Virus record (IMG/VR): IMGVR_UViG_3300017912_003441
Location: 1-64,000 of that record
From: a virus
Lineage: Duplodnaviria > Caudoviricetes
Reading direction: 5' to 3' (one strand)
DNA: 64,000 nt
A program made the position numbers and the translations under genes. The notes beneath the pieces are model-generated. The model made no database searches, was not told the DNA's origin, and saw only the letters and a program-made list of their open reading frames with translations. Shown piece by piece: positions 23,048 to 51,826 of this stretch; positions within the stretch are counted from its first letter, which is position 1; each line of letters opens with the position of its first letter.

Positions 23048-25573
23048 ATGAGTAGAAGAACTATACAATCACCTGGAGTTGAAATCCGAGAAATAGACTT
23101 AACACAACGGCCCGCTGCACCCGTTGGAACAAGTGTTTTTATTGCAGGTTTTGCCAATCAAGGCCCTGTAGATGAAATTTTTAATGTAGGAACGTTTGCC
23201 GAGTTTGAAGAAATTTACGGCAAGCCGACGAACGCAGCTGAAAGATATTTTTATCACTCAACTAAGCAAGTCTTTGATAGTGATGCAAATGTACTCGTCT
23301 CTAGATTACCTTACGGGGAAGGGAGCGGGCTCACAACTGAAAAATATAGCGCGCTTGTTTATCCAGTTTCTACGGCAAATGTGGTTACCTTATCCGGTAC
23401 TGTTACGAATAACGGTGGATTATCAGCTACTTTCTCCCAGGATGGTACTTATCCAGCTGCCAGTTCCCACGCTAGCCTAGCGATGGTTGAAATTGTTTCT
23501 CAAGACTCAGATGGTAATATAGTTTATACTTCTGCAAGCGCTACGGTGTCTTCAACCGCGACTACTTTGACACTTAGTGGGTCTGATTATGCAAATCTCT
23601 CTGGTAATACAGTATTAGCAGGAGTCGCTCTATCTGCTCAGATAGCTGGTACTACTAGTTTAAGCGCTGCAAATTATTACGTTCTCGGTAATCCTACACA
23701 CATAGAATTAACTAGAGAGCAATATTTATCTGCTTCTAACGAACAATACACATGGAACGACACTCCTGGCCAAACCGTTAGTGTAGATGACCTAGGTAAT
23801 GCAGGTTTAATTATTCTTAATAAAGCTAAAGTTGGTACTAATAATGAGTTCGAAGGGTATTATGTTGGCGTGACAGACAATAGCACTGTTAACCCGGGAT
23901 CAAATCATGATTTAATTAGAAGTGTTAAAGCAGTAACTTCTAGCGCAACCTCAACAGCTCCTTCGAGCTTTTCTACTGTACCTACATCAAGGTATGACTT
24001 CTCATTAAGTTCTACTCCTACCTCAGAGAAATCGAGCGTAAGTAAAACATTACAAACCTTTAGTAAGTTTGATATTGACGGTGGTCAGTTTATTGATACA
24101 ATTTCAATTGGTGTGTTTAAAGTTCGTAACACCCCATTTGCAAATACAGACTTAGAACTTACAAACTTCTTAGCCGAAGGGTATACAGGTTCTCTTAACT
24201 CCTTCCGTAAGATTCAGAACGAAAACGGAGGTCAGAGAAAATCATTCTTTATTGGGGATCAAGATGATAGTTCACCTAACGTAGTCATTAAGGTTAATCC
24301 TAATATTTCTACTAACGCAGGAGATTGGAACTCTACTGCTGGGGATGCTCCAACTAAATTTGTACGTGTTGCAAACTCTCAAGTAGGAGTAAACAATGCA
24401 GCAGTGACCCACGGATTATTATTGTCCGACAATGGTGCAGATGGATTTAGTGAAGACCCAGCTCTTGTGAGCTTAGGTACATATACAGATGTAAATAACA
24501 ATACTTCAAAAAATATTGGTAGTGTTCCTGATAAGTTAGATCGTATATTTAACGTTGCTTCTAACGTAGATTTACTTCCAATTGATGTAAGTATCGAAGC
24601 TGGTTTAGGTACAATTTTCGGAGTTAGTAAAACTCAGACTAATAGTGCTTATGACGACACTGAATATGTAACTCTCAGTGATACTGGATTCTATGCTACT
24701 AGCGATAATATGACAGCTTCAAATGAGATTGCTCTGAGAGACAATTACAGAACAATCTTTAATAGATTTGAAGCATTTGCGCGCAATACAAGAAAAGATC
24801 ATATCTTTATTGCTGATGTATTGAAACCATTAGTTGTACAAGGATCAAGAGGTAAAGTATTAGATGATAAATCTAAAAACTTTAGCAAGCATGTTTACTG
24901 GCCGTTACGTCATCAGTTCGGATTCGCAAACAGTAACTTTGCTACTGTTTATGGTAACTGGGCTAAGGTTTATGATGGTACAAGTGACAATCAGATATGG
25001 ATTCCGTTCTCTGGTGTTGCTGCTAAGATTTATGCTCAAAACGATGCTAACTTTGCACCATGGTTTGCACCAGCTGGTTTCAACAGAGGAGTTGTTACAG
25101 GTGTAAATGACATCGCAGTAAGCCCAACTCAACGTCAAAGAGATCAATTATATAGAATTGCAGTTAACCCAGTTACTCAATTCCCTGCAGAAGGTATTGT
25201 TGTATTTGGTCAGAAGACATTACAACGTAAGCCAACTGCCTTTGATAGAGTTAATGTACGTCGCTTGTTCCTCGACCTTGAGAAGAGAACGAGAGAGACC
25301 CTTAAGTTCTTTGTTTTTGAGCCTAATACGTTCTTAACAAGGAACAGAGTTGTTAATACTTTAACACCAATATTTGAAAACGCAAAACAGACAGAAGGTG
25401 TATATGATTACCTTATTGTTTGTGATGATCGGAATAACCCTGGCAGTGTTATTGACCAGAACGAGTTACGAGTAGACATCTACTTGAAGCCAGTTCGCGC
25501 TGCAGAGTTTATATTAGTTAATTTCTACGCTGTTAACACAGATGTTAATTTTGAAGAAATTGTAGGTCAATAA
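23048..25573 (+). CDS. 18: Contractile tail sheath protein (gp18)
   Basis: SPGVEIREIDLT, PWFAPAGFNRG, FGQKTL, AFDRVNVRRLF, FEPN, IYLKPVRAAEFI. Confidence 0.96.
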   Translation: MSRRTIQSPGVEIREIDLTQRPAAPVGTSVFIAGFANQGPVDEIFNVGTFAEFEEIYGKPTNAAERYFYHSTKQVFDSDANVLVSRLPYGEGSGLTTEKYSALVYPVSTANVVTLSGTVTNNGGLSATFSQDGTYPAASSHASLAMVEIVSQDSDGNIVYTSASATVSSTATTLTLSGSDYANLSGNTVLAGVALSAQIAGTTSLSAANYYVLGNPTHIELTREQYLSASNEQYTWNDTPGQTVSVDDLGNAGLIILNKAKVGTNNEFEGYYVGVTDNSTVNPGSNHDLIRSVKAVTSSATSTAPSSFSTVPTSRYDFSLSSTPTSEKSSVSKTLQTFSKFDIDGGQFIDTISIGVFKVRNTPFANTDLELTNFLAEGYTGSLNSFRKIQNENGGQRKSFFIGDQDDSSPNVVIKVNPNISTNAGDWNSTAGDAPTKFVRVANSQVGVNNAAVTHGLLLSDNGADGFSEDPALVSLGTYTDVNNNTSKNIGSVPDKLDRIFNVASNVDLLPIDVSIEAGLGTIFGVSKTQTNSAYDDTEYVTLSDTGFYATSDNMTASNEIALRDNYRTIFNRFEAFARNTRKDHIFIADVLKPLVVQGSRGKVLDDKSKNFSKHVYWPLRHQFGFANSNFATVYGNWAKVYDGTSDNQIWIPFSGVAAKIYAQNDANFAPWFAPAGFNRGVVTGVNDIAVSPTQRQRDQLYRIAVNPVTQFPAEGIVVFGQKTLQRKPTAFDRVNVRRLFLDLEKRTRETLKFFVFEPNTFLTRNRVVNTLTPIFENAKQTEGVYDYLIVCDDRNNPGSVIDQNELRVDIYLKPVRAAEFILVNFYAVNTDVNFEEIVGQ

Positions 25574-25604
25574 TAATAAGTAAACCCTAAATAATTATAA
25601 CATC

Positions 25605-26195
25605 ATGGCTGATATTAAACAAACTATACAGGACTTTTATAAGGTAGCTCAAACAAGAGACTTTACACGTGACTTTCAGTTCCGTGTCTTAGATGTCTCC
25701 AACAAAGGTGTACCTGTGTTTACTGAGGATGACTTAGTATACGCAACAACCGCGGTACTGCCTGGTAAGCAGATCTCTCCCAAAGAGGTTCCTTACAACG
25801 GCTTTACCTTCCGAATCCCTGGTACAGTTTCTTATAATAACAGCGATGCGTTTGGTATTGACTTCTATTGCGATGCTACTTCTAATTCTAGAATCGCGAT
25901 TGAAAATTGGGTTACTGAAACATTCAATGATGAGACTTCTACAGGTGATGGTGTTATTCATAACAATAGCACCATCACTTTAGCTCAATTAGATACTAAG
26001 TTCGAAGTATTACGTACATATAAGCTATTTGGTGTATTTCCTGTACAAGCTGGTGATATCTCTTATTCAATGGTAGGTAGTGGAGAAGTACTATCCGTTA
26101 GTCTGACATTCGCTTACCAATTCTTTAGGAGAGACAATGAGCTCAACACAGCAGTCAATGCTATCGGTAAGTTAGCTGGTGCTGTTTTAGGTTAA
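25605..26195 (+). CDS. 19: Tail tube protein (gp19)
   Basis: Follows sheath; LPG, PG..Y, QLD...LRTYKLFGVFP, TFAYQ. Confidence 0.88.
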   Translation: MADIKQTIQDFYKVAQTRDFTRDFQFRVLDVSNKGVPVFTEDDLVYATTAVLPGKQISPKEVPYNGFTFRIPGTVSYNNSDAFGIDFYCDATSNSRIAIENWVTETFNDETSTGDGVIHNNSTITLAQLDTKFEVLRTYKLFGVFPVQAGDISYSMVGSGEVLSVSLTFAYQFFRRDNELNTAVNAIGKLAGAVLG

Positions 26196-26213: not shown

Positions 26214-26939
26214 ATGAGCGTACAGCTGCCATCTCTAGATAAACGTAATTTGAGGGAGTCCTTTTTCGATCTGTTAAAGGACTTCCCTACTTTTCCAGCG
26301 TCGCAAAATCTATTTCTAGTTAAAATAGATTCTATACCGGCAGCACTTACAGATGAGAATCAAAAAAACTTAGGCATTACTCCTGGTACTAAACCATTAG
26401 GTATAAATCGATCTAAATCAGTATATGAAAAGTATATATCTGGTAGTGAGTATATGTATCTTGCTACCGGGGTTGATTTAACTACTGATAAAGTCAACGT
26501 TTCTAGTAAGGGTAAATTAATTAACGGTTTGCTTCCTGTTGGTCCGTTTGTTGATGAAAGAGAATATCCTGATACAGATTTAGAGATACAATTCTCGGAA
26601 AGTAATATAAGTTTTGTTGATACAATTATTAGACCATGGGTTCAAATGTATAGCGTTCATGGTAACTTTGATGATATTGACTTAACTACTACAATTACAG
26701 TTTATTTTATAGCCAAAGAACAACTTACAACTCGTAAGACGTTTAGTTCAGTTCTCTTTGGTTCTTCGGGCGGATCTCCTGTCATCCGCAAATATTACGT
26801 ATACAAAGACTGTATACCATATAATATACTAACAGCAAATGTTGCAGAGTATGCAGGAGAAACTACAATAGGTGGAGCAGGTACACGTTGGAGATTTTCT
26901 ACATACGATGTAATTACTCCTATAGATGGTAAGCTATAA
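26214..26939 (+). CDS. Tail-tube-like baseplate protein (gp54-like)
   Basis: Position, F.E....D.IIRPW, Y..DCIP pattern; late promoter 6 nt upstream. Confidence 0.55.
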   Translation: MSVQLPSLDKRNLRESFFDLLKDFPTFPASQNLFLVKIDSIPAALTDENQKNLGITPGTKPLGINRSKSVYEKYISGSEYMYLATGVDLTTDKVNVSSKGKLINGLLPVGPFVDEREYPDTDLEIQFSESNISFVDTIIRPWVQMYSVHGNFDDIDLTTTITVYFIAKEQLTTRKTFSSVLFGSSGGSPVIRKYYVYKDCIPYNILTANVAEYAGETTIGGAGTRWRFSTYDVITPIDGKL

Positions 26940-27627
26940 TCAAATAGCAAAATTAACTTATTTATCAGAAAATAAAAGAAAAAAAGAATTTTTAGATTTA
27001 TTTCTGTCTTTATGTAAAACTAATAAGTTAATCGATATATTGCACTTTATTAAAACCGAGCGGTTTATAGAGGATAATAGTAATATTAAGTTACTATACC
27101 AAGAAAAAGAAATAGTTATTTTCCGCGAAGATTTTTTGCTAGATATACCCGAACCCTCACCTAGCGTACATAAAATTAATTCCTTCGAAATTCTCCTAGA
27201 CTATCCTAATATAATCGATTATACATGTAAACCCATGCATTGCATACAAAGTATTAGTTATAACGACGAAATACTTACCTTAAATAGCAATACAGACTAT
27301 AATCATATACCTAAAACATTATATGATAAGTTAAAACCAGCTATTAGTCAATACGAAGAAGATCTTAATAATATTTTTGTATACAAGATCGGGAATATTA
27401 CGAGTAGATTTTTTCTAGACATTGACTTAATAATTAAAATAATATACTTAGCTTTTGTTACTTCTTATAAGAATATAGTCGAAGAAAGATTATTTTTAAT
27501 GAAAGAGTATAACTTTACATATGACGCATTTGATAAGTTATCTTTTCATGAGGTAAGACAACATTTGACAGCAGCTATTAAAAACACAAATGAACGCAAT
27601 AATCCAGAAGCTCGGCGAGCTCACTAA
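26926..27627 (+). CDS. Baseplate hub assembly protein (gp26/gp51-like)
   Basis: C-terminal LMKEYNFTYDAFDKLSFHE resembles gp51; synteny. Confidence 0.4.
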   Translation: MVSYNQIAKLTYLSENKRKKEFLDLFLSLCKTNKLIDILHFIKTERFIEDNSNIKLLYQEKEIVIFREDFLLDIPEPSPSVHKINSFEILLDYPNIIDYTCKPMHCIQSISYNDEILTLNSNTDYNHIPKTLYDKLKPAISQYEEDLNNIFVYKIGNITSRFFLDIDLIIKIIYLAFVTSYKNIVEERLFLMKEYNFTYDAFDKLSFHEVRQHLTAAIKNTNERNNPEARRAH

Positions 27628-28231
27628 GCTCAATTATACGTTACCTATTAGTAAGCAAGAGGTAACTATTAATAAAATTAATCTCGAACTACAGTCTCAA
27701 TTTGAAGATTTTGCGCGTAATATAAAAAATGAACTTACATCAAGTACAAAATACTTACAATTCATTAACAATCATATTAAGAAAGAAGCAAAAAGTAATG
27801 TCAATTATTTAGATAAATTATATATTTTACAGCAGTGGTATAATGATGTAAAGGAAGAAACAGTTGAGTGCGAAATAACAGACATTACAATTCCAGACTA
27901 TACAATGTCTATTGATGATGTGGATTTAAAATTTGTCTTTGAATTACCAGAAATAGCTAAAGAATTGGCGCTATTAAAATATATTATTTCTACATATAAA
28001 GATGAGATGAAATCCGTAGATGCTTTGTTTTATTTTATTTTTAGATTTATACAGTCAATAAACATTGATGATGATACTTTAAATGTTGAAGATATTGAAA
28101 CAGCAGAAGTTTTATACAAACATTTAAGTATGAACAAAATTACCAACCTTACTAATCACATAGATAAAGCTTTAGACTCTATACAACCCTTAAGAAACTT
28201 CGAAATAGATCCCCGCGTTTTCTTTGCCTAA
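27590..28231 (+). CDS. Baseplate hub assembly protein (gp26-like)
   Basis: N-terminal YTLPISKQEV; synteny before tape measure. Confidence 0.4.
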   Translation: MNAIIQKLGELTKLNYTLPISKQEVTINKINLELQSQFEDFARNIKNELTSSTKYLQFINNHIKKEAKSNVNYLDKLYILQQWYNDVKEETVECEITDITIPDYTMSIDDVDLKFVFELPEIAKELALLKYIISTYKDEMKSVDALFYFIFRFIQSINIDDDTLNVEDIETAEVLYKHLSMNKITNLTNHIDKALDSIQPLRNFEIDPRVFFA

Positions 28232-28246
28232 TAATTAAATAATTAT

Positions 28247-36831: not shown

Positions 36832-38664
36832 ATGGCAAACTTTACAGAATTTAATCTACCAACAAATGCGTACACTGGGTTTGATGCTCAGAGTCTCAGA
36901 GATCTGATCATTGATAGAATTAATAACGACACGACAATTAATTTTACTGATCAAAACTTTGAGGGTAGTAATATTTCTGCCCTTATAGATATAATTGCGT
37001 ACTCATATCATACATTACTTTTTTACTTAAATCAAACTAGCTCTGAAAGTAATTTTAATGACGCAGAACTATACGAGAATATTAACCGCATTGTTAAGCT
37101 TATTGATTATAAGCCAGTAGGTAAACAAACCGCTGTATTACCGGTAGAAATAAAAGGTACTTCTGATTTGTCTGCTGGTTATTATACTATTCCTAAATTT
37201 TCATTCGCAACAAGTCAAGGTAAAACATTTACTTTCACTAAAGACGTAACATTTGAAAAAACTACTTCTGATACTGAAACAATCTCTGCAATTGGAAGTC
37301 AATTAATGTATGAAGGTACATTACAAGAATATCCTATTATTAACCCTATAGGAGAAAAATTCGAAGTAGTAAACATTTTACCCGGTGGTAATACTACAAT
37401 TGATCATTTTAATATTTACGTATATGTAAAAGAAGTTAATTCTAATAATAAATGGTATGAATGGTCACGAGTTCCTTCTTTGTACTTGTCAAAACCAAAT
37501 GAAAGAAGTTTTGAAATTAGATACAATGAAAATAAAAACTATGAATTAAAGTTCGGCAATAGTGTTAACGGAAAAAAATTAAATCAAGGTGACCAAATCG
37601 CAGTATACTACCTCAAATCTTCTGGTACAGATGGTAAAGTAACAAAGAATACTTTTAATAGTAGCTCGCTAAACATATACAATACTTCACAGTATGATAA
37701 CATTCTTACAGATACCCAAGATACATCTCTGAACTTTTTGACGATTGAGACTGTATTGAACACTACTATAAGTAATACAGAAGATAGTACCGACTTCGGA
37801 GAAGAAGAAAACGCAGATGAAATCAAACAAAATGCGCCAAGATTCTTTAGTTCAGAATATAAACTTACAACAAAGGATGATTACAAAAGCTTTGTAGAAC
37901 GTAATTATAAGAACCTTGTTTATGACGTTACAGTACAAAACAATAGTGACTATACTAATGATTATTTAAAATATCTAAATGATGAACTTGGTTTAACAGA
38001 TTATAGTCTCGAAACCAACGCATTATTTAATCAATATTATTTTGCTGATAGTTCAGATGCAAATAATATATACTTAACTATTGTACCTAATTTAAGAAAA
38101 AATAAATCTGTAATTACTAGATCAAATTATCTCTCTAATGCTCTTAAAGAAAAAATTCGAAGCGAAATCGCGGATTACAAATTATTAAATAGTGAAATTG
38201 CTTTTATTGATCCCGTTTATTTAAATTTAGATTTATCATTACGATTTTCAGGTGAAGTGAACAGACTTAGATATAAAGATAGTACTCAATTAGTTATAAC
38301 TAAACAAGCTCGTGCTTTAATAAATGAAGACGATTTAAAAAGTAAAGTGTATAATATTATTACTACATACATTAATAATCTAAAACTAGGAGATACTATT
38401 GACGTAAGATATCTCAATAATGAGATTGAAAAAATTCAAGGCATAGAAAGTATAGAAACATTACGTACAGATTTAAATCGAAGTACCCCTGGTCTTTCAT
38501 TTTGCGTGTTTAATCCGATTTACAATGGAAAGGATAAAAAAGTATTCGATACTAGATGCAAATTAAAACCATACCAAATACCATACATTGAAAGCCCTGT
38601 TGCTTTTAAAGATAAAATCGTAGTAAAGTCACAAGTCACTAACAAACGGGTTGTTGAATATTAA
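36832..38664 (+). CDS. 6: Baseplate wedge protein (gp6-like)
   Basis: FTDQNFEGSNISALIDIIAY, LKFGN...GKKL, YLKSSG.DG, EIKQNAP, TKDDY. Confidence 0.9.
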   Translation: MANFTEFNLPTNAYTGFDAQSLRDLIIDRINNDTTINFTDQNFEGSNISALIDIIAYSYHTLLFYLNQTSSESNFNDAELYENINRIVKLIDYKPVGKQTAVLPVEIKGTSDLSAGYYTIPKFSFATSQGKTFTFTKDVTFEKTTSDTETISAIGSQLMYEGTLQEYPIINPIGEKFEVVNILPGGNTTIDHFNIYVYVKEVNSNNKWYEWSRVPSLYLSKPNERSFEIRYNENKNYELKFGNSVNGKKLNQGDQIAVYYLKSSGTDGKVTKNTFNSSSLNIYNTSQYDNILTDTQDTSLNFLTIETVLNTTISNTEDSTDFGEEENADEIKQNAPRFFSSEYKLTTKDDYKSFVERNYKNLVYDVTVQNNSDYTNDYLKYLNDELGLTDYSLETNALFNQYYFADSSDANNIYLTIVPNLRKNKSVITRSNYLSNALKEKIRSEIADYKLLNSEIAFIDPVYLNLDLSLRFSGEVNRLRYKDSTQLVITKQARALINEDDLKSKVYNIITTYINNLKLGDTIDVRYLNNEIEKIQGIESIETLRTDLNRSTPGLSFCVFNPIYNGKDKKVFDTRCKLKPYQIPYIESPVAFKDKIVVKSQVTNKRVVEY

Positions 38665-41114
38665 TGAGCGCTGAGGAAAAATGTCCATTAAGTGTACCAG
38701 TACCGATTACTCTATCGGTAAATACATCCGGGTCGATACCTTCTCCTGTGAACAATGTACACAGTTTATCTGCCACTCATAGCGGGTTCACTCGTATAAG
38801 TGAATTTACCTTTACATCTAATCTCACAGGTTCAACTTCGTTTAATGAACTAGTCGATCCGCCGATTTCTACTACTGTTGCAGTTTGGGACTTTGGTGAT
38901 GGTAACACTCTAAGCGCACGAAACACTCCAACTACAACCCATACATACAAAGTCCCGGGTATTTATACTGTAGCAGTTTATTACTATGATATTAACGGAA
39001 CAGCGTACTTTAACACCCTCACTGAAACTGTATCAGTATACAACTATGTAGAAACGAACATACAATTATCGAACACCGAAGTAGATAGTGTTTCTGGTAA
39101 GATGTTCAGAGCTGGTAGTACAGATGACCCTGGACAAAAATTTCCAACTCTTGTAACTGCCTCTTGGCAAGATGTATCAACAACAGACTCTATTACAGGG
39201 ACAGAAGATTTTACTCTTTATGTTACAGCGAGTGGTAGTAAATCAAAACCATACGACACTAAAAACAAGTATGCTCATTTATTACCTTACAATGCTTTTT
39301 ATGATCGCTCAGAAGAAGACAAAAATGTACGCATTGATCATACAGGAGTAAACATAAAAGTAAATAAACGCAATTACGCAATTAACCCAAAAGATAATAC
39401 TATTAAGTTAGTTGCGGATAGTTTTATTCCAGAATTAAGCGCATTAGGCATAAAAACCTACATGCTAGGCGCCACAAATAATCCACAGACCGCTGTTAAC
39501 AGTTATAATACTTCTGTATCTGGTTTAACAGGATCCGAAACATTATCAGGTAAAAGTGTAATATTAAGTTATTATGACGATACCCCAAATATAGATCCCG
39601 GAGTCCAATTAATTGTAAAGCTCGATCTTAGTAAACATCGTCTCAAAAATTTCTATGTAGATAATATAGAAACAGATATTAACGGTAGTGGGCAAAACTT
39701 TCTCGAAACTGGAGGTGGTGCTCTTAAAAACTACGACGGTATATTAGTCAAAGTCACAAAACCGGTACCGGATTTTACCGACTTGTTTTCTTTTACGTCT
39801 ACTGGAATGAAGCAAATGTCAGCGATTAATTATAAAAGACAAGGAGATAAGTTTCAGGTTTTTATAGGGGTACAAGACAAAGACAAAAATATATTAAAAA
39901 ACTACCCGATATTTTTAAGAGACACTACTGGGAATATCGGAACATTGTCTGCTACTGATAATACTTTTTATATTAATTGGGCTAGTGGTGGAGATTTACA
40001 CACTACTAATGTAAGCAGTGTAAGTACTAATAAGTTCCCATATAACAGCACTACAGGTAACACAGAGTTAAGTAGCTTTTTATATCTGAATATCGACCCA
40101 TTAAGCGCTGGAACATGGACATTAAATGTTTCTGCAAACATACAATCTCTAAGCGCTAACACGAGCGCGCTTTCTGGCTTTGGTAATGTTGGCGGAAACG
40201 TCGGGGAAAATACACAACATTATACCGGTTCGTTTACATTTACAGTTTACCCGTCAACTAACGATGTTGAGTTCTATTTACAAAACGAAGATATAGATTA
40301 CTCTCAGGTAATTAAAAGTTATAGATTCCAATCATTCATGCATGAGTATGATAATCTATTTGACGGTGTGTTTACGTCGTTTGTAGGAGAAGCAAGCTCA
40401 AGTCCAACTACATTTGGTAAGACTATTTTCTCTAAAATAGCTAACTTTGTTACTAATCATAACGATATTGATTTATGTAAAATAGATCAAATACAATCCT
40501 TTTATGATTTACTGAATGAAGATGTAGATATCATTTTACCTGAACCTCCCTCTGAACTAAAAAGACTGTATGATACGTTTAGTATAAAAGTATCTAAATT
40601 GTTAGGTAACTATGAACAATTTTCAGAAAGCTTAAACTCGAATTTTTATACTTCTTCTGCAGACGGTGTAAATGTAGATTTTAACAACCCAATTACTGCT
40701 TCTACATATACAGTTACAGCGTATACAAATTTTGTAGCACGACAAAAATTTAATAACGAATTTTTAATAATTAAACCTCAAAAAGTTGCTACTAAAAATG
40801 TTGATGGTACATCTTCAGGGGAATCTACAGAGTACGAACTTTCAGCTTATAACATATATAGTAATTGGGGCTGGCCGCTAGACACTACTGTGTCTGGTGC
40901 AAGTGGGTTGTCTGCAATGTATGATTTTTATCCATATACAGTTACTGATCCGACTTCAGCAATTAAAAATTTACAAGCAAATTTAATTGATTACAACAAC
41001 CCATATACAACAATAACAAGAACAGCTTCATCTTTAAGCGGTGATTGGACTAATGATGATGGTATAATGTATAAGAATTTAGACTATCAAATACGGAAGG
41101 GCCTTAGCATATGA
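38664..41114 (+). CDS. Baseplate/virion protein with PKD domain (gp7 position)
   Basis: WDFGDG...THTYKVPGIYTV PKD motif; follows gp6. Confidence 0.7.
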   Translation: MSAEEKCPLSVPVPITLSVNTSGSIPSPVNNVHSLSATHSGFTRISEFTFTSNLTGSTSFNELVDPPISTTVAVWDFGDGNTLSARNTPTTTHTYKVPGIYTVAVYYYDINGTAYFNTLTETVSVYNYVETNIQLSNTEVDSVSGKMFRAGSTDDPGQKFPTLVTASWQDVSTTDSITGTEDFTLYVTASGSKSKPYDTKNKYAHLLPYNAFYDRSEEDKNVRIDHTGVNIKVNKRNYAINPKDNTIKLVADSFIPELSALGIKTYMLGATNNPQTAVNSYNTSVSGLTGSETLSGKSVILSYYDDTPNIDPGVQLIVKLDLSKHRLKNFYVDNIETDINGSGQNFLETGGGALKNYDGILVKVTKPVPDFTDLFSFTSTGMKQMSAINYKRQGDKFQVFIGVQDKDKNILKNYPIFLRDTTGNIGTLSATDNTFYINWASGGDLHTTNVSSVSTNKFPYNSTTGNTELSSFLYLNIDPLSAGTWTLNVSANIQSLSANTSALSGFGNVGGNVGENTQHYTGSFTFTVYPSTNDVEFYLQNEDIDYSQVIKSYRFQSFMHEYDNLFDGVFTSFVGEASSSPTTFGKTIFSKIANFVTNHNDIDLCKIDQIQSFYDLLNEDVDIILPEPPSELKRLYDTFSIKVSKLLGNYEQFSESLNSNFYTSSADGVNVDFNNPITASTYTVTAYTNFVARQKFNNEFLIIKPQKVATKNVDGTSSGESTEYELSAYNIYSNWGWPLDTTVSGASGLSAMYDFYPYTVTDPTSAIKNLQANLIDYNNPYTTITRTASSLSGDWTNDDGIMYKNLDYQIRKGLSI

Positions 41115-43411
41115 CAATAGATTTAAATACAACTAATCCATTATCATTTGTAGAATGGAAGCAATATTATAATGACAATCGCAACGCGACTGAATTATCT
41201 ATATTATATAATAATTATTTGGTTGACTGGAAAGAACAAAAACAAGCCAATACAGATACAAAAAACAACTACACAAGGTCTATTTATACCCAGTTTCTTA
41301 AAAATTTAACATTAGATACTTTAGATCACGAAGTTGGTAGATTTTTAAATGAAATAGATACTGATGATATATATGAATTAGAATTAGGAGTACATTATTT
41401 TGTTAATATAATTCGTAATCAGTTATTAAGTGTAAAAGAGTTAAGAGATGAAGCTACTTTTAGTACAACTAAAAATAAACTAAAAACATCTAAAGCAGGT
41501 GTAAAACAATACTTAAAGAATTATATTTCTAAGCTTTTAAGTAATAAAGATTTTATAACTGAAAATACTGATACTTCAACTGCAGATATAAATGTTGAAA
41601 AAATCGCTAATGCAATTTCTATAGATATAGACCATTACGTATCTGACGAATTCATATATAACATACATCCGATTGATAAAGATTTAGTCGACAATATTGA
41701 GAACAGAGTTTTAAGAGAGTCTAAATCAAAAAACATATATCAATTAATTACTATTAATAAAAATGGTAAACAGTATAAAGTTGAAACAAATAATATTTCT
41801 ACCCCGAGTGCTTTATTAGGTATTAATGACCCGTTTTCTAATTATGAAAGACTACCTAATAGATATTTTCGTAATGAAATAAAAACATTAGATAATTTAA
41901 AATTTATTCTTGAACGGGATCTAATTAAAAAATATTTAGCTAATGACATATATCGGCTGTCCGGAGATAAAAAGAACGCTAGTGTAGAAGTTTTATACGA
42001 TAATGTTAACCCTACAAACAATCTGACACAAAGATATGGCCCTAATTTATTTGGCGGTATTGTAAATGAGAAAAATACGAATATATTTCCTTTTCAGCTT
42101 TCATATAAAAATACTGGTACAAATAATTTTAATTCTTTTGGTCTAACTTTTAATATTAATTTATCTGCGTTCAACGGAAGAGAGTATTTGATTCCAAACC
42201 CACACCAATATGAACCAGGGTTAAAAGCAGTTGGTTATATTAAAGACCATAAAGGCAATATTTTACGCAACATAAAAGTTAAACAACGTACTCCATTAAT
42301 TTTTAAATCTAAAACAAACACATTTAAAAATAATGATAGAACGAATTCTGTTAATTTTTATAATAATAAAATTGTACGCAATTATGGTTATCAAAGCCAA
42401 GAAAACAGTTTAGAATATACTCCTGCAGGTATTAACAAGAGAGAAGATAATATTAGTTTTTGGGAAGATGCAGAAGGTCATATCGACTGGAGAAATACAG
42501 ATACTTATCCAGTAAGTGTTTTAAATATATTTCCGGAAAGTAAACGCTTAGATGATTTACTTATCACAAACAAGACAGGTGTTAAATTACGGAGCGATGT
42601 GTATGGTAATGAGTTTTACTTTATTAAGTCGATATACCCAAAGAGAAAAGCAGGAACATCATATATAAGTGAAGAGTCATCTAGCACAGATACAAGCTGT
42701 ACAACAGCAGCAGAGTTTTATGACGGTCTTTATTTTAATCCGCTTTTATCTGCTATATCCGCAGCTCAAGCATCTAGTCCTACAGCATATACAGGGTTGA
42801 CTGGAATATATGATACCTTCATTGTTAATGATAATACTTTATGTAGTCTAGGCAATATCGGTGGGTCTGGAAGTTCATTCTTCGCGCCATTATCAACATA
42901 TAATTGTACAGATCTACATACAATAGCTCTATCCTGCGGTTCTGTATCTGCTGTCTCAGCGGTTGATGGAGGTCCGTTTAAAAGTCACCCAGGTCGCTCG
43001 GATTTATTAATTGAGAATTATTTTAAAGATATAACTATACCATACTACACAATTGACTCAACTGCAATTTATTCTAATACAGTTACTACGTATGAGTCAG
43101 CAAGTCTTAACCAACCAACTGCAACAAAGTATCAGTTATTTGAACAGCAATTTGAGGAGTTTGGAGAAATATTTGTACGTAATAACTTTTCTCAAGAAGT
43201 ATTAACTTTAAAACAAGCCATGTCTGCTGTGTTTAACAAACATTCTGCTGCGACGAAAGGCAGGATTTACACATCTAATAAAATACAAGATTTTGAGATT
43301 ATCGAAGATTCAATATACATACAAACTAACGTAGAGACATTAACTGAAAAATACACATTTGATGACGGTACATTTAAAAACGCCGCAGGGTCGAAATCTA
43401 TAATAACTTAG
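41111..43411 (+). CDS. Large virion/baseplate protein
   Basis: 766 aa, operonic with baseplate genes. Confidence 0.6.
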   Translation: MTIDLNTTNPLSFVEWKQYYNDNRNATELSILYNNYLVDWKEQKQANTDTKNNYTRSIYTQFLKNLTLDTLDHEVGRFLNEIDTDDIYELELGVHYFVNIIRNQLLSVKELRDEATFSTTKNKLKTSKAGVKQYLKNYISKLLSNKDFITENTDTSTADINVEKIANAISIDIDHYVSDEFIYNIHPIDKDLVDNIENRVLRESKSKNIYQLITINKNGKQYKVETNNISTPSALLGINDPFSNYERLPNRYFRNEIKTLDNLKFILERDLIKKYLANDIYRLSGDKKNASVEVLYDNVNPTNNLTQRYGPNLFGGIVNEKNTNIFPFQLSYKNTGTNNFNSFGLTFNINLSAFNGREYLIPNPHQYEPGLKAVGYIKDHKGNILRNIKVKQRTPLIFKSKTNTFKNNDRTNSVNFYNNKIVRNYGYQSQENSLEYTPAGINKREDNISFWEDAEGHIDWRNTDTYPVSVLNIFPESKRLDDLLITNKTGVKLRSDVYGNEFYFIKSIYPKRKAGTSYISEESSSTDTSCTTAAEFYDGLYFNPLLSAISAAQASSPTAYTGLTGIYDTFIVNDNTLCSLGNIGGSGSSFFAPLSTYNCTDLHTIALSCGSVSAVSAVDGGPFKSHPGRSDLLIENYFKDITIPYYTIDSTAIYSNTVTTYESASLNQPTATKYQLFEQQFEEFGEIFVRNNFSQEVLTLKQAMSAVFNKHSAATKGRIYTSNKIQDFEIIEDSIYIQTNVETLTEKYTFDDGTFKNAAGSKSIIT

Positions 43412-43422: not shown

Positions 43423-46347
43423 ATGCCTTTTAGCAACAAACAGTCAGACATATTTTACAACGATCAAACGAAAGAAATGTTCGTTTGTACTGTTAGTGCT
43501 ATTACTGCGGCAAGATGCGAAACAGGAGATACTATATACGGTGCATTACCAATAATTTACAAAATCGATAAAGATACAAATTATAGACAAACAATATATC
43601 CTGATAATTTAGACACCTTTCATACAGATGAAAACTCTGATATATTTAAATTAACTCCTCCATGTCCTGTAGAAGATTTAAATTTTGACTCTATAACAAA
43701 ACCTCTCATTAATTATAATAAGGACACGTCAAGATATTCTGTAACCTTTTTAGGTCGGTTCGCTAGTGATGTAGATGGATTAGTAATTAATAATTATATT
43801 TTCGAAGATGTAGATAGTAAGTTTCATTTATTAAAAGCTAAATCTCTTTTACCGCAAAATTCTTTATCAGCTGTTAACGGTCGATTTACATTTGATAGTG
43901 GTTATTTAAACTCTGATTTATATATTGGTGGTAATACTGTACGTAACCAAAACGCATCTTGGTTTAACCCAGCAGATGGAGAAGAAGTAGAAAGGTCTCC
44001 TAACTACATGGTGTCTCCTACTCATGTAGAAAGTACAAGCGCAATAGGCTTTAATCTAATTCAAGACAATACAAACACAGCACTTGATGCTCTTACAGGG
44101 GATAAAAATTTCCCTCTTATGTTTAGCGGTGGTTACATAACTGTTAATCCAAAGTATGCTGCTTATGATCCACAACATACTATAAGAATAGATTTTCGGG
44201 CGAGAAGTTTTAACGTACCTGCTCCGACTGCTTATGCGAGTACCCAAACAGTAGGCAATAGCGCCTCAAGATGGGTCCAGCAATATTCACCAGCTGGTGC
44301 AGGAGAAGGTTTTTGTGTATATTTGTTTGAACAACCTCAAAAGGATCGGTATGTTGTACCTAATGGTGTTGCATCAACACTCGGTTATAGTCCAGCAGAC
44401 TTCAATGTAGTTGAAACCGCTGGCTCTGCTCAAACTACAGTTGGTTTGTTTGAGAGAAACAATTGGAACCCATTTAAAGAAACATATGGTTGTATTGGAG
44501 ACGGTCAAGAGGCAAATAGTTTCATAGGTGTTGGTTTTGATATAGCTGGTAATTTCGGTTCTACTTCAGAAGATAAACCTGGGTGGTTTAATGTAAATAC
44601 AACTACTCCTTCTCCATGCTCAGTATCGATAAGAGGAAACAGGTTTACTAATAATCAAATATTAACCTCAGTAGATCTTTCTGCTGTTCCTGGTTCAACC
44701 GCTATACCTCTACATACGTCTGCAGCTGATGCAGTTTTTGTTGATTACAGAGTAGATCTAACTAATAAAGGAAATAGATTAACTGTCTCACACAAATTAA
44801 CATCGAGTGAAACATATAACACTATATTAGATTTACGTCTTAATAAGATACAGGGAAGTTATTATAGTACGACTGGTAATGCTGGTAATGTAGGTGGTAG
44901 TAATATGTATGATCCGTGGTCTGGTTTTCAGGTACAAGATGATGAATACCCGTTACTAAACATAGGTCTATCTTTTACTACAAGTACAAAAGTAAGTCAG
45001 TTTGAATTACATTCGTTCGAAGTAAAAGGAGTTAGAGTACATAACCCGTGGGATGAGAAAATCGAACCTGAAACACAAGAACAAAAAACACGGATTGATT
45101 ACATAAACAAATCTTCTAAAAATCTTAGAGAACGACTTACTTATTCTGAGCTAGACGATAACGTAGACATAGAAATGGTTGTCCCTGCAAAGAGTAATAT
45201 TGCAAGTGAATTATACGAGCAGACAAATACAACCGAGATTACATTGTGTGATATTAATGAACCAGAATTTATAGAAGAAGAGGTAGAGGTTAAATACACT
45301 GGCATTAGACCGGAAGATATTGATACAGTTGTACAAGCAGTTGAGCGTGGAGATTTAATACCAGAAATAGGTGGAGGTTCAATACCAAGAGCGACTGGAG
45401 ATCTTGTTGTACCGTCAGAACCACTTGCGACTTTATTACCATCTTTCCAGAAACAAATAACAGATACAGGTGAAGTGAGATTCACTCTTGGAGGTAATAA
45501 AGGATGGTCTGCTGTTTGTTTCTTAAAAGGGGATCGAGCACCAATATTAGGCAATCCTGTAAATCAATTATTAACTAATTCTGCAAACGCGTGGAACGGT
45601 CATCTATTTGATCCATTAATATATAACGGTAGAGAATATTGTGTATATATGAGAGTTAGAAACCTAGGGTTAACAACAGATACTAAAATATATTATACAG
45701 AAGATTATGACGAACTTAACGAACTGTTTATCGATGCCATAGAAAAAGACTTTGAAGCGAACGGAGCTGAGAAATATACTAAAGTATGGGAGTTAATGCC
45801 CATGGTGGAAACACCTGCTACCCCGTGGGAAGGTAAAATGTCCGACTGGGAAGGCGCAGATGGAAGACCAGATTGGAACTGGGTTAAAGTCGGTTCTAAA
45901 GAAGACGCAGTTGAGAAATACCAAGACGGTGGCGATGTTTGCATGGTGATAGAGGACCAGAAGGGCTTCCTCAACTTAACTGGTCATCGATTAGGGCAAG
46001 ATAAAAACGGTTATACTGGTTTAGTAGAAATAGATTTCGCTTTACTTGATATTATAAATACCCCAGATGATATAGCAGCAAGCGCAGAAAAAGCTCTAGT
46101 TATAACTTTAGATGAAGCTAAAAGAATGAGCAGATTATACGGTATAAAATGGGAACAGTTAACTGCTTATGAAGATGGTTATACATACTATTTACTGCCT
46201 AACACGATGGGGCAGGTTCCCAATCCTACTACCGCGCAGACCGAACTAAGAGAAAAATTTCCAGACTTTTATGCGAGTCAAGTAGGAACTGGTGGCAATT
46301 GGTTCGCAACTAAAGGTAGTTTTGATCTGAAAGATCTACAAGGTTAA
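43423..46347 (+). CDS. Virion protein with legume (L-type) lectin-like domain
   Basis: GEGFCVYLF...GVASTLGY...FIGVGFDIAGNF pattern; late promoter 5 nt upstream. Confidence 0.6.
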   Translation: MPFSNKQSDIFYNDQTKEMFVCTVSAITAARCETGDTIYGALPIIYKIDKDTNYRQTIYPDNLDTFHTDENSDIFKLTPPCPVEDLNFDSITKPLINYNKDTSRYSVTFLGRFASDVDGLVINNYIFEDVDSKFHLLKAKSLLPQNSLSAVNGRFTFDSGYLNSDLYIGGNTVRNQNASWFNPADGEEVERSPNYMVSPTHVESTSAIGFNLIQDNTNTALDALTGDKNFPLMFSGGYITVNPKYAAYDPQHTIRIDFRARSFNVPAPTAYASTQTVGNSASRWVQQYSPAGAGEGFCVYLFEQPQKDRYVVPNGVASTLGYSPADFNVVETAGSAQTTVGLFERNNWNPFKETYGCIGDGQEANSFIGVGFDIAGNFGSTSEDKPGWFNVNTTTPSPCSVSIRGNRFTNNQILTSVDLSAVPGSTAIPLHTSAADAVFVDYRVDLTNKGNRLTVSHKLTSSETYNTILDLRLNKIQGSYYSTTGNAGNVGGSNMYDPWSGFQVQDDEYPLLNIGLSFTTSTKVSQFELHSFEVKGVRVHNPWDEKIEPETQEQKTRIDYINKSSKNLRERLTYSELDDNVDIEMVVPAKSNIASELYEQTNTTEITLCDINEPEFIEEEVEVKYTGIRPEDIDTVVQAVERGDLIPEIGGGSIPRATGDLVVPSEPLATLLPSFQKQITDTGEVRFTLGGNKGWSAVCFLKGDRAPILGNPVNQLLTNSANAWNGHLFDPLIYNGREYCVYMRVRNLGLTTDTKIYYTEDYDELNELFIDAIEKDFEANGAEKYTKVWELMPMVETPATPWEGKMSDWEGADGRPDWNWVKVGSKEDAVEKYQDGGDVCMVIEDQKGFLNLTGHRLGQDKNGYTGLVEIDFALLDIINTPDDIAASAEKALVITLDEAKRMSRLYGIKWEQLTAYEDGYTYYLLPNTMGQVPNPTTAQTELREKFPDFYASQVGTGGNWFATKGSFDLKDLQG

Positions 46348-46349
46348 TA

Positions 46350-47423
46350 ATGAATACAACGACATACACAGTAACAGCAACACCTAGTCCGTTCGGTGGA
46401 ACGAAGACTAAGTCTAAATCTATCACTGGTACTAATGACGTTACGTTCGACTTTGGTGGCTTAAGTAGCTATGATGCTGCTGCAGGTGGTAACTATCGCA
46501 TCAATAAAGTTATAGTAGATTTCGATGATGGGCAAGAACTTGTAGTAAATAGACCTCTTTCAGCCTCTACAATTCCATCTTTATCTAGTCATACATTCAC
46601 ACATACTATTGAGAGTGATTTTACTGACATGGCGACCCGTCATGTATACTTTACAATATATAGAGATGATCAAGAAGTAGATGTTATAGATTTAAAATTT
46701 ACAGTCGAAAAAGCTCCTATCGAAAAATATGAAAATGTTAATTTGTTAAAAACAGATTACTTTAATGACGACAAAAATGATGAAAAGTTATTATTAACAT
46801 TTATTAACAAAAACCCTGAAGTACTAGGATTGAGCTTATTAGATGTAGATAACGAAACAGATGTATATGATCCTGCTTTAGCAACTAGCCAGGGAGTAAG
46901 TGCTGAATCATTTAATGTTGGGTTTACAACCGAGTATATACAAACTCAAGCATCTCAGTCTAATACTGCTGAAGGTGTACAGGTAAGTCTTACTGACATT
47001 ATTAACCCAAATACAGGGCTACCTAAAAATAACGGTTCTATAAGTCTAAAATATAGAACAAGAGCTGCTGATCCAAATAATCAAGGCGCTGTTAATTTAC
47101 CTAACAACCCGGCTCTGTTTTACATACCATTAACTGCTAATTCTGGTTTCATGCATTTGAGCGGGTTCTTGAGTTGGAACTGTGGTGATTTACTTAAAGA
47201 TGTAGACTTATCAACTAAAACAATTACAATACCGCTTGTTGATATTGTAGGTACAAGAGTTTCTTTAGGAGATTATTATTTTACTAATGTTAATACAGGT
47301 GTTGGAACATCTGTAATGGGTCTTGCATCTGGTGGTTATTTTTATGTAGATTTATATGATGTATCTGGATGTGACTCAATAACAACACAAACAAGTACAA
47401 TTACAGCGTTTGTAAATTACTAA
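46350..47423 (+). CDS. Virion structural protein
   Basis: 357 aa beta-rich, DFDDG PKD-like segment. Confidence 0.55.
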   Translation: MNTTTYTVTATPSPFGGTKTKSKSITGTNDVTFDFGGLSSYDAAAGGNYRINKVIVDFDDGQELVVNRPLSASTIPSLSSHTFTHTIESDFTDMATRHVYFTIYRDDQEVDVIDLKFTVEKAPIEKYENVNLLKTDYFNDDKNDEKLLLTFINKNPEVLGLSLLDVDNETDVYDPALATSQGVSAESFNVGFTTEYIQTQASQSNTAEGVQVSLTDIINPNTGLPKNNGSISLKYRTRAADPNNQGAVNLPNNPALFYIPLTANSGFMHLSGFLSWNCGDLLKDVDLSTKTITIPLVDIVGTRVSLGDYYFTNVNTGVGTSVMGLASGGYFYVDLYDVSGCDSITTQTSTITAFVNY

Positions 47424-48376: not shown

Positions 48377-51300
48377 ATGATTATTAACTCTATTAATACT
48401 GAAAGTATTACGCCAGTCGAGTATAATCATATGCACGACAGCACGCTAGTATTCAGAAAATATAGAGAAAACTTTGACTTCGGTTTAACAGTAGATCAAT
48501 ACTACTTTAATAAAGACGCAAAAGATAGAAAAACAAATTACAATACTCAGTACATATTATCTGAGCTCCAACCACTATCTACTATCTTAGAGTTAAAAAT
48601 ACCTTACACGAAAAAAGCAACAGAGGAGTTTACAACTACCGTAAAATTTGACGGAGACTTTCTTATGACTTCGGGGTCAGGAGACTCAGGTTTAAGTGCT
48701 AACTTTGTTTCATCTACTGAGTTTAGTAATTTAAGCAGTCAGTTCTTTTTTACTTTCACTCTTACAAGTACGTCATTAACTAAATCTACAGCTGTAACAG
48801 CAACATCAGGCAATATACTTCCGCCAGAAGATAGAGTTATTGTTACAACTACTTCTGCAGACAATACGTATTATCTTGCTGCAGTTTCTGGTACTGATAC
48901 TACAGCGACATTTTTACCCTTGTCAGCAGTATCATCTGATATACCTAGTTTTAGATATAATTTAGACAATAATAAATTAATACTCTCTAATGTTACTCCA
49001 GAGTTATCTGCTCGTGATGGTAGATTATGTAATCACGGAGGAACTCTGAGCTTATCTGGTATTGATAACTTTTTTAATACAGCAAGTTTACTTAGCGCTT
49101 GTATATTTGATATTAATAGATATGAGCTGACAAAAGACTATAAGACATTACCTAATAGTTTTGTTAAATATACTTCTTCTTTTAATACAGATGTTGTAGA
49201 TTTAAATACTAGTACTGTAACAGAGTACATTAGTAATAATTATTTTGTTTATAGTAATAATTATAATTACTTTCAACAAAAGCAGAACAATACCAACACT
49301 GTACACGCAGATATATTTCCTTTAAAAAACCAAGCTACGCTACACGAATATTACGCGGAAAATAATCACTTTAATTCCGAACCAGGCTATTTAAACCGCG
49401 TATATGAAAAAATACATGCAGGCACAAACCAACAAACAGGTACAGACAAAATAGGAATATCTTATAATATAGGTACATATGATATTGCGTTTAAGCCTAA
49501 CAAATTAACATACTTCACGACCCCTAGTTCTTTATCTCCGTATACTGTTTTACACATTAAAGATTCTAAGATAGAAAACTTAGGAGCTATACCAGGAGAT
49601 AATCCGTTAATGTCGGACAAGGTCTTTAAGAGACGAGTAGATATTAAAAATAACAACTACAGTAATAATACTGATCCGACTTATTTGTGTAGTTGGTTAT
49701 CCGGTAATAGTGATGGAGAAACAAAATGGGTAGATAGGTATTATAACCCATCTATTAAAAACTTTACTGCTGCTCTTTCTACTACATCTTATTATAAGGT
49801 TGTTACTGCAGCTGGCGCTGAAACAACAGAGACATTCGACGTTTCATCTAGTTTAACATTTGAGCCTAATAATGATTATATGTTTTATCATATAGGGTCG
49901 AATGACTATGGAAAGTTATTTGAAGCTTATAATACTCAATATAATGAAGCGTCAGGAATAGAGTATATTAATTACAAAGGGGTACCTCAAGTTGTTGATA
50001 AGGTATTAGACGACGATGAGATTGTACTAAACGGAGAGACATTCGGTAGAATTAAAACTGAGTCTATTGGAGACTTTAGTACTAATTTTTGGTTACATAC
50101 TGAAGACAATACCTTACCATTTGGCTACCAGATACTAGGTAATTACTTTGAAGAAGGATTTGGTATATTCAATACTGACTTAATTACCCCTAATATTATC
50201 CTACCTACTCGAAATGAAAAATCTGGTAGAATGAGTAAGTTAATGTTTTTAAATAATGATTTCGAATCTTATGATGAGATTATATTAAGAGATGGTAAGA
50301 GTGAAATTGAGATAAAAGCGATAGGTAGAAAAGATAACTTCTCTGAGTTTTATGTATTAGGTGTTAATAATGTAATATACGTATTTAACAGTAACAATAA
50401 TCTCATTAGTAAGATTGAAGACTTAAAAGATACAAATGCTATAGTAGATGACTTTGAAGTAGGAGAAGACAAATTGCATGTGTTATTTAACCCTGTAACA
50501 GCGGCAGGTAATTTCTTTACTTATAATTATAACACTAATAAAACCAATACTGTTACTACAAGTGTTTCTGCAAATACAAAAGGACAAAAAGGAAAGATTG
50601 TAAGAAAAAATGGCGGTACTACAGTATATAAAGTAGATGCAAATAACGGGTATGGTAATGAGATTAGTTTTGATAGCAGTGGTAACCCATTTGTGTTAAG
50701 ACAAGAGAAACCAAATGACTTATCTAACACTCAAAACTATGTACAAAAAAATGCTGACCCTCTTAACTATTCTGAGTCTTTAACCGACTCTATAAAAGCT
50801 GGCCTCGGTATTAAAACAAAAATTAATGGTGTAATAATTGACGACGATGATAACATTGTTGTACTACATGATAATAATATCATTTCTATTTTAGATAATA
50901 ATCGCAAATTGAAGCGCACTAGAGAATTTTGTGACATTAATAACTTTCCTTTCCAACAAACTTATATGGATATAATTTGTGACTTTGAAGACGGGGTCTA
51001 CAAAAAATATATTTTGTTTATACAAGAATTTAATGACGGTTTTCGATTAACTAAACTTAATGAAAGATTAGAAATTATAGCCTCTAAAAAGTTCTTTAAT
51101 AGTGGTCCAGGAAAACCTAGTTTAGGAAATTTAAAACTCACTAAATCTGTTACATCATATTATTACCTAAGAAATACAGGTGCTAATAAGAACAGACTTA
51201 AAGTTGTAATAAAAGCAAAACCAAAATTTTCTTCCTCTGGAGTTATTCCTAGAGTAAAAAGTTCAATTGACTTTGATATTACAACATTGAATCCTGGTTA

Positions 51301-51826
51301 TAATCATTTCTTTGTTAATGTATCTTTGAGGAAAGGTTATATGGAGCTTTATGTAAATGGAAGTCATTATCAAACAGTTAATTTCTCCGCAGGTACATTT
51401 GCTTTAGATAACATTTTAGGAACTGGTTTGTATGTTGGTGCGGTTAGTACTCCATTTTATCTCACCTTAGCGAATAGGTTACAACAACCTAAGAAGTATT
51501 TTATTAATAATGCTAAGATAAAAGGTTTTAAGCTCTACAACAAAATAATGTCCTATTTCGATATGTTAGCTCATTATAACTATCATATCGGAGACAAAGA
51601 TCTTATCTGGTCATATCCTATCGGTCAAAGAACATATATCGATACTATTGATAAACTGTCTAAATTTAGCTTCCCAGAAAAAATTAATAATAATTATAAG
51701 GTTGACATCCTTAACACAGATATTAAGGATGAGAAGTTGAAAGATAAGATAAAAGAGAGATTAAAAGAGGAGTTAAAGAAAATAACTCCTTACTACGACA
51801 CTAATGAGGAAATGACTATTACTTAG
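48377..51826 (+). CDS. Large virion protein with LamG/concanavalin-like elements
   Basis: FSTNFW, YNHFFV....GYMELYVNG, LYVGA, FKLYNK. Confidence 0.6.
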   Translation: MIINSINTESITPVEYNHMHDSTLVFRKYRENFDFGLTVDQYYFNKDAKDRKTNYNTQYILSELQPLSTILELKIPYTKKATEEFTTTVKFDGDFLMTSGSGDSGLSANFVSSTEFSNLSSQFFFTFTLTSTSLTKSTAVTATSGNILPPEDRVIVTTTSADNTYYLAAVSGTDTTATFLPLSAVSSDIPSFRYNLDNNKLILSNVTPELSARDGRLCNHGGTLSLSGIDNFFNTASLLSACIFDINRYELTKDYKTLPNSFVKYTSSFNTDVVDLNTSTVTEYISNNYFVYSNNYNYFQQKQNNTNTVHADIFPLKNQATLHEYYAENNHFNSEPGYLNRVYEKIHAGTNQQTGTDKIGISYNIGTYDIAFKPNKLTYFTTPSSLSPYTVLHIKDSKIENLGAIPGDNPLMSDKVFKRRVDIKNNNYSNNTDPTYLCSWLSGNSDGETKWVDRYYNPSIKNFTAALSTTSYYKVVTAAGAETTETFDVSSSLTFEPNNDYMFYHIGSNDYGKLFEAYNTQYNEASGIEYINYKGVPQVVDKVLDDDEIVLNGETFGRIKTESIGDFSTNFWLHTEDNTLPFGYQILGNYFEEGFGIFNTDLITPNIILPTRNEKSGRMSKLMFLNNDFESYDEIILRDGKSEIEIKAIGRKDNFSEFYVLGVNNVIYVFNSNNNLISKIEDLKDTNAIVDDFEVGEDKLHVLFNPVTAAGNFFTYNYNTNKTNTVTTSVSANTKGQKGKIVRKNGGTTVYKVDANNGYGNEISFDSSGNPFVLRQEKPNDLSNTQNYVQKNADPLNYSESLTDSIKAGLGIKTKINGVIIDDDDNIVVLHDNNIISILDNNRKLKRTREFCDINNFPFQQTYMDIICDFEDGVYKKYILFIQEFNDGFRLTKLNERLEIIASKKFFNSGPGKPSLGNLKLTKSVTSYYYLRNTGANKNRLKVVIKAKPKFSSSGVIPRVKSSIDFDITTLNPGYNHFFVNVSLRKGYMELYVNGSHYQTVNFSAGTFALDNILGTGLYVGAVSTPFYLTLANRLQQPKKYFINNAKIKGFKLYNKIMSYFDMLAHYNYHIGDKDLIWSYPIGQRTYIDTIDKLSKFSFPEKINNNYKVDILNTDIKDEKLKDKIKERLKEELKKITPYYDTNEEMTIT

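Follow-up and report, generated by a model that had tools for sequence, protein, structure and literature searches.

The tail and baseplate proteins encoded in the first 64 kb (64,000 nucleotides; the whole stretch of DNA analysed here, hereinafter the window) of a single 119,263-bp viral contig (IMG/VR record IMGVR_UViG_3300017912_003441, labelled G000; G+C content 0.357) carry a strong excess of a short, ordered protein motif, Leu-Ser-Ala/Gly (LS[AG]). The motif has a narrow residue specificity and is restricted to peripheral virion proteins. Its density is maintained throughout a clade of related phages while individual sites turn over, and the excess is absent in cultured relatives. From these sequence patterns we tentatively read LS[AG] as a tag that directs modification of its serine, probably by O-glycosylation, an interpretation that could well be correct. 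The phage itself is a deep-branching, uncultured, marine myovirus of the T4-like type: its DNA polymerase is ~30% identical to cyanophage polymerases, and the contig, whose completeness CheckV estimates at 59%, also codes for a gp32-like protein, a clamp loader and a terminase. Comparisons with phage records found no close cultured phage, and many relatives are present in IMG/VR.

Across the eight tail and baseplate proteins of the window (5,823 amino acids [aa]), the count of LSA is 22, where 1.94 would be expected (Poisson P = 3e-16), which makes it the strongest outlier among all 3,117 tripeptides present in these proteins; LSG ranks second (10 vs 2.3 expected). Taken together, LS[AG] counts 32 vs 4.3 expected (z = 13.3) in the tail proteins, as against 7 vs 8.1 in the window's other 13,391 aa, where no tripeptide is a comparable outlier. 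In the outer tail and baseplate proteins of this phage and its clade, the excess over chance is about 7- to 11-fold. The difference between virion and non-virion proteins that the original prediction had anticipated is therefore seen after correction for composition, and its hand counts for the sheath, the 816-aa, 1149-aa, 357-aa and 766-aa proteins and the polymerase are all reproduced. Residue order matters: the 22 copies of LSA compare with 1–5 each for LAS, SLA, SAL, ALS and ASL, and the LSA excess persists when sequences are shuffled inside 10-, 20- or 40-aa blocks (z = 12–13). Accordingly, local Ser/Ala-rich composition is not the explanation, and an artefact of composition or low complexity is ruled out. 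The codons are likewise varied, with 39 sites being written by 31 different 9-mers, so the signal is a protein-level one and a DNA-level repeat can be dismissed. Finally, masked segments of ±20 aa around the sites have a mean pair score of 18.9, as compared to 18.0 for controls; motif-bearing segments are thus no more alike than control segments, which excludes a hidden repeated domain. Hence, the core of the original prediction, namely a short, ordered, protein-level motif that is concentrated on peripheral tail proteins in unrelated contexts and encoded by varied codons, is borne out.

We determined the positional specificity of the motif by pooling four genomes of the clade. At position 1, Leu is enriched 2.9-fold, with Ile at 1.0 and Val and Met at 1.5; position 2 is Ser, with Thr at 1.1–1.4 and Asp and Asn at ~1; and position 3 follows the order Ala (2.9), Gly (2.0), Ser (1.6) and Thr (1.4). 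When LS[AG] is subtracted from the [LVI][ST][AG] class, the remainder has z = 3.9. The motif is essentially L-S-[A>G>S], with Ile and Thr variants near expectation and Val variants weakly raised. Thus, the [LVI]-[ST]-[AG] sequon as first proposed was too broad: its Leu-Ser-Ala/Gly core stands as an enriched motif, while the extension to Ile and Thr, and for the most part that to Val, does not. The flanks are nearly uninformative, Asn being 1.9-fold enriched at +4 and Tyr and Val being raised at +5; the surroundings of the sites are poor in Lys, Arg and Glu, Pro precedes just 4 of the 32 window sites, and the spacing between sites is mildly clustered without a clear period. Several familiar motifs were considered and rejected: a leucine-rich-repeat-like element (the Asn preference lies at +4 rather than +3, and there is no periodicity), a helix N-cap (LD[AG], LN[AG] and LT[AG] are not enriched) and a lipobox (L-[AS]-[GA]-C; Cys comes next after just 2 sites). 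Known glycosylation sequons were ruled out as well, none of them being enriched: D-[ST]-[AILVMT], the Bacteroidota O-linked sequon, numbers 21 vs 25.7 expected in the tail proteins (z = –0.9), and neither N-x-[ST] nor the Campylobacter N-linked sequon shows enrichment. The proposal that the motif is unlike known sequons accordingly holds, and a literature search for a phage LSA/LSG sequon gave nothing specific.

The tail sheath, an 841-aa protein of the T4 gp18 type (23048..25573, plus strand), bears seven LS[AG] vs 0.8 expected. It matches the PHROG_23 tail sheath family (E = 9e-63) across the conserved C-terminal domain (aa 628–840), tblastn searches with it matched 2,694 phage sheath genes, and its AlphaFold2 (AF2) model (predicted local distance difference test [pLDDT] score 73) has the gp18 fold, with Foldseek matches to the KP1 and T4 sheath chains (E = 5e-26 to 2e-23). 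All seven copies fall in a hypervariable insert (aa 115–229; 23390..23734, plus strand), where Ser and Thr make up 30% of residues vs 18% in the whole protein. Among 27 homologs this insert ranges in length from 64 to 184 aa, and conservation of the motif flanks within it is 0.30 vs 0.59 for the whole protein. Over the 27 sheaths, LS[AG] occurs 42 times vs 5.3 expected in the insert and 33 times vs 14.9 in the rest of the protein. We take the insert to occupy the position of the outward-facing domain I of T4 gp18. The seven sites share no single secondary-structure context in the AF2 model.

Beyond the sheath, the virion genes code for a tail tube, gp25-like and gp6-like baseplate proteins and a gp14-like neck protein; 3′ of gp6 come six large proteins, for which one PKD domain is the sole family assignment, and neither a portal nor a major capsid gene could be recognised in the contig. 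The gp6-like baseplate wedge protein (610 aa; 36832..38664, plus strand; PHROG baseplate wedge, E = 3e-43) has one LSA and two ISA. Next to it is encoded the 816-aa baseplate protein with one PKD domain (38664..41114, plus strand; Pfam PKD_4, E = 2e-8), which is the richest carrier, with 11 LS[AG] vs 0.7 expected and 22 members of the broader [LVI][ST][AG] class vs 3.9; its AF2 model is poor (pLDDT 52). The remaining carriers of this region, all on the plus strand, are tail-module proteins of 766 aa (41111..43411; 3 LS[AG] vs 0.5 expected and 7 of the broad class vs 2.5), 974 aa (43423..46347; 2 vs 0.6 and 7 vs 3.9), 357 aa (46350..47423; 2 vs 0.3 and 8 vs 2.0) and 1149 aa (48377..51826; 6 vs 0.7, and 11 of the broad class). 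The 766-aa protein, which has no Pfam or PHROG match, contains both of the clusters LLSAISAA and SVSAVSAV, and the 1149-aa protein has its LS[AG] at aa 106, 182, 210, 226, 239 and 441, that is, within the N-terminal 450 aa. On the minus strand, the gp14-like neck protein (head closure Hc2; 243 aa; 17728..18459; PHROG_460, E = 2e-5) has one LSA and four members of the broad class vs 0.9 expected. A 720-aa fibre-like protein encoded beyond the window is also enriched (6 vs 1.4 expected).

No excess is seen in the replication enzymes (the DNA polymerase has a single LSG), in the tail tube (25605–26195), which lacks LS[AG], or in the open reading frames (ORFs) that separate the tube gene from the gp25-like gene. 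These eight successive plus-strand ORFs (26214–33953) have no PHROG match, and one of them, coding for 498 aa, had no tblastn match among 50,697 phage records. A second tail-tube-like protein (21515–22096; PHROG_45, E = 2e-18) is encoded directly after the terminase gene, apart from the tube at 25605–26195.

The motif excess is kept in relatives down to ~40% sheath identity. For instance, homologs of the 816-aa protein (44–98% identity) carry 4–10 copies vs ~0.7 expected, and in 351 non-redundant proteins from the relatives' loci LSA is again the top tripeptide (146 vs 47 expected). The motif is strongest in the relative G004 (LSA 60 vs 15 and LSG 56 vs 21, over 14 proteins), with LSA counts in other contigs being 33 vs 7.3 in G013, 18 vs 3.5 in G016 and 15 vs 4.1 in G017; Pfam and PHROG scans of the relatives' most motif-rich proteins returned no families. 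We used four cultured phages as controls, in whose virion proteins the observed/expected counts of LSA are 6/4.4 (T4), 1/1.8 (Pelagibacter phage HTVC008M), 4/3.2 (Flavobacterium phage immuto) and 3/3.5 (Synechococcus phage S-T4). The absence of an excess in these four excludes a generic property of T4-type tail folds. Within the clade, pairwise alignments with four relatives gave a retention of motif sites of 0.36, 0.27, 0.21 and 0.10, as compared to 0.33, 0.29, 0.25 and 0.06 for the average tripeptide, and each of the four has 7–9 new sites elsewhere. Similarly, in the family of the 816-aa protein 25 alignment columns bear the motif in at least one sequence, 5 of these 25 doing so in at least half. 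Density is maintained while positions drift, as selection on the tag itself would give and unlike the outcome of a site-specific structural constraint. Separately, a complete 253,664-bp jumbo phage genome with terminal repeats (G006; loci L154–L166) has two 797-aa PKD paralogs near its ends (1406–3799 and 243946–246339), with 10 and 7 LS[AG], respectively; judging from this genome, the motif may reach beyond the clade defined by the sheath.

The same evidence bears on the alternative that LS[AG] is an unmodified structural element of the clade's β-rich tail modules, where Leu would act as a core anchor and Ser-Ala/Gly would form a tight turn or strand entry, the whole being kept for folding or packing and read by no enzyme. 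We consider this the main rival explanation, albeit a somewhat unlikely one. It would accommodate the strictly conserved sites Q84, Q481 and Q792 of the 816-aa family, the recurrence in many homologs of a site just before the NYYVLG strand of the sheath, the weak flank preferences (N/D at +4, Y/V at +5), and the location of five of the seven sheath sites at most one residue from a secondary-structure boundary, as well as the occurrence in distant relatives of LSG within the LPLSGGTMTG repeat and of LSA within 7-residue repeats. However, the four cultured T4-like phages have the same kinds of folds with no excess; Leu is preferred over the better β-formers Ile and Val, and Ser over Thr, Asp and Asn; the seven sheath sites differ in secondary-structure context; most sites turn over, with carrier segments that are dissimilar; and the spacing has no clear periodicity.

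In the tentatively preferred reading, that of a modification tag, L-S-[A/G], with Ser as a weaker third residue, would constitute a short linear acceptor tag on serine, which selection would keep, throughout a large clade, on tail, baseplate and neck proteins that face outward and which a clade-specific factor would read in the cytoplasm of the infected cell. Most likely, a phage-encoded transferase would O-glycosylate the motif serine, the best candidate being a clade-conserved GT-A glycosyltransferase of the PF13712 family, and the resulting glycosylation would coat the tail exterior. The closest comparable cases differ from it in informative ways. The TibC/AAH autotransporter heptosyltransferases, with TibA and AIDA-I as substrates, are cytoplasmic enzymes that modify Ser rather than Thr at many sites in β-rich folded proteins, and their mapped serines are followed by Gly or Ala (NS*GG, TS*AA, the asterisk marking the modified residue; PMC4358343). 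They thus offer a precedent for Ser-only cytoplasmic O-glycosylation at Ser before Gly/Ala; however, there the serine is preceded by Asn or Thr and here by Leu, their substrates are bacterial adhesins, and PF01075 (GT9/heptosyltransferase) had no match in G000 or in the relatives G001, G002, G004 and G005. In mycobacteriophages, phage-encoded glycosyltransferases modify the phages' own structural proteins in the cytoplasm, with glycans that sit at the C-termini of capsid and tail-tube subunits and are believed to act as a shield for the particle (Freeman et al., 2023, cited in PMC12619734). The motif described here is instead internal, lying dispersed within sheath, baseplate and fibre-like proteins and missing from the tube, and no capsid gene was recognised.

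General O-glycosylation in Bacteroidota acts on exported proteins in the periplasm, at D-[ST]-[AILVMT]. Here too a three-residue Ser/Thr sequon marks many unrelated proteins, but that sequon is unenriched in the window, phage virion proteins fold in the cytoplasm, and the motif of the window needs Leu and rejects Thr. The capsid of the chlorovirus PBCV-1 is glycosylated at non-canonical sequons by virus-encoded glycosyltransferases, together with virus-encoded sugar-nucleotide enzymes (including rhamnose-related ones), independently of the host secretory pathway; in that case, however, the glycans are N-linked to Asn on the major capsid protein of a eukaryotic virus, whereas the sites in the window are Ser-based and on tail proteins. 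Lastly, the widespread phage tail-fibre repeat ...LPLSGGTMTG... contains LSG and is found in fibres of distant members of the sheath clade, but it is a long conserved structural repeat, in contrast to the window sites, which have no shared flanks. A clean example of this classic repeat is an 823-aa fibre of a distant member of the sheath clade (L076, 823–3294, minus strand), which has ~14 copies of a 35–40-aa repeat of the form ...[FY]LPLSGG[ST]MTGPLSV...AANKKYVD.

The candidate GT-A glycosyltransferase (5589..6293, plus strand; PF13712, Pfam E = 6e-13) is the sole glycosyltransferase to track the motif-bearing clade, being found in all 11 of the 11 related contigs that cover the uvsX–gp41 region; the window's copy had no match in cultured phages. 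The jumbo phage G006 also has a PF13712 GT-A, just 25% identical to that of the window. In the window the gene is part of a tightly packed array, uvsX-QueC-GATase-GT-gp41 (3163–7626), which is syntenic throughout the clade; the genes adjoining it (4244..5592, plus strand) code for QueC (TIGR00364, 168.8 bits vs a cut-off of 150.3) and an N-terminal nucleophile (Ntn) glutamine amidotransferase (GATase_6, E = 8e-11). Searches of five genomes, one of them complete, found no DpdA/TGT, and QueD in just one, so a 7-deazaguanine DNA modification pathway is not obviously complete; the uvsX–gp41 cassette may make something else, for example an amidated sugar. Right-arm GT9, sulfotransferase and weak GT2 genes were also considered as writers and set aside, as motif-bearing relatives share none of them. 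A bolder version of the tag hypothesis, which we regard as somewhat unlikely, is that the motif constitutes an undescribed serine code on the outer tail of this widespread clade, whose writer would be a clade-specific cytoplasmic enzyme, perhaps the GT-A with its QueC-like and amidotransferase neighbours making an amidated sugar, and whose sites would be gained and lost fast, like those of a viral glycan shield.

The tag might instead be read by something other than a glycosyltransferase, with the outcome being phosphorylation, sulfation, acylation or non-covalent binding by a clade-specific tail-assembly chaperone or decoration protein. The evidence for selection on a linear tag applies equally to such a reader, several homologous sites have Asp or Glu in place of Ser (LDA, LEA, LDG, IDG), Lys, Arg and Glu are depleted near the sites, and the genome encodes a sulfotransferase. 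Against this, the sulfotransferase is not shared with any motif-bearing relative, the changes from Ser to Asp/Glu are no commoner than ordinary substitution, and no kinase or chaperone candidate was identified; we accordingly judge this alternative improbable.

In its original form, the prediction coupled the [LVI]-[ST]-[AG] sequon to a phage dTDP-rhamnose pathway, with RmlA-, RmlB- and RmlD-like enzymes making rhamnose for the GT-A to attach. The sugar genes themselves are real. The RmlA-like glucose-1-phosphate thymidylyltransferase (22088..22966, minus strand; TIGR01207, E = 2e-82, 276 bits vs a cut-off of 360) and the RmlB-like dTDP-glucose 4,6-dehydratase (334 aa; TIGR01181, E = 3e-92, 309 bits, under the cut-off of 365) are clear members of their families, albeit under the equivalog cut-offs, and the PF13712 GT-A was correctly recognised; the supposed epimerase/reductase is an RmlD-like short-chain dehydrogenase/reductase (SDR; 299 aa) with a weak match (TIGR01214, 47.6 bits vs a cut-off of 224) and uncertain specificity. 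The SDR and RmlB-like genes lie together (12239..14132, plus strand; TIGR profiles and Pfam). Besides the presence of the three genes, the rhamnose version is favoured by a late-type TATAAATA motif of the T4-late kind that ends 7 nt before the RmlA start codon (22967–22996), so that the sugar nucleotide may be made during virion building. TAAATA is also found 9–13 nt upstream of many structural genes and not upstream of the GT-A, RmlB or SDR genes. A match to RmlC in the close relative G001 likewise favours it; this match (G001:C1:41260–41784) contains an in-frame TAG stop. Nevertheless, no RmlC (PF00908) match was found in the 119-kb contig, although the gene could be encoded outside a contig estimated at 59% completeness. 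RmlA occurs in the closest subclade (G000–G003) alone and is absent from G004 and G005, and no RmlA, RmlB, RmlC or GT2 was found on the 149-kb, ~70% complete contig of G004, yet the motif is strongest there; since the contigs of the relatives are incomplete, these gene absences are not proof. Thus, the expected co-occurrence of the motif with rml genes fails in G004, as far as its incomplete contig goes, and with the Ile, Thr and most Val variants of the sequon unenriched or weakly so, we consider the rhamnose link very unlikely.

Several observations weigh against reading the motif as a glycosylation tag. Modification of the serine, its nature as a sugar and the enzyme responsible are all matters that we infer, and surface exposure can be inferred for the sheath alone, where three of the seven motif serines lie inside β-strands in the AF2 model. 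In all 26 of 26 sequences the PKD domain contains an LSA, and the few strictly conserved sites of this kind could reflect structural constraint. In some distant relatives, LPLSGGTMTG fibre repeats and LSAxxxx heptads contribute part of the signal, though the window's own sites do not derive from either. Shared ancestry confounds the association between GT-A and motif, and the GT-A gene sits inside a replication operon, with overlapping neighbouring genes and no late-type promoter nearby; such a placement suits a role in modifying nucleic acids or nucleotides no less than one in modifying proteins. Finally, the giant Cys-rich fibres (4357, 1718 and 1337 aa), presumably the most exposed parts of the virion, are unenriched, with 4 LS[AG] vs 9.2 expected. 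These fibres are encoded beyond the window (G000:C1:89306–111637), and for just one of the three does a single relative have a distant homolog, at 31% identity; they have the look of a module that is recent or evolving fast and that stands apart from the motif system.

Even without modification, a tripeptide that turnover keeps at 5- to 10-fold excess in unrelated proteins points to selection of an unexplained kind. A modified serine would make this the first phage tail known to be decorated under the direction of a sequon, and would do so in ocean myoviruses that form an abundant group. If present, such a coat around sheath and baseplate could influence adsorption and aggregation, as well as how the particle withstands proteases and grazers or is recognised by host defences; the motif would then also serve as a simple marker for picking modified virion proteins out of metagenomic sequences.

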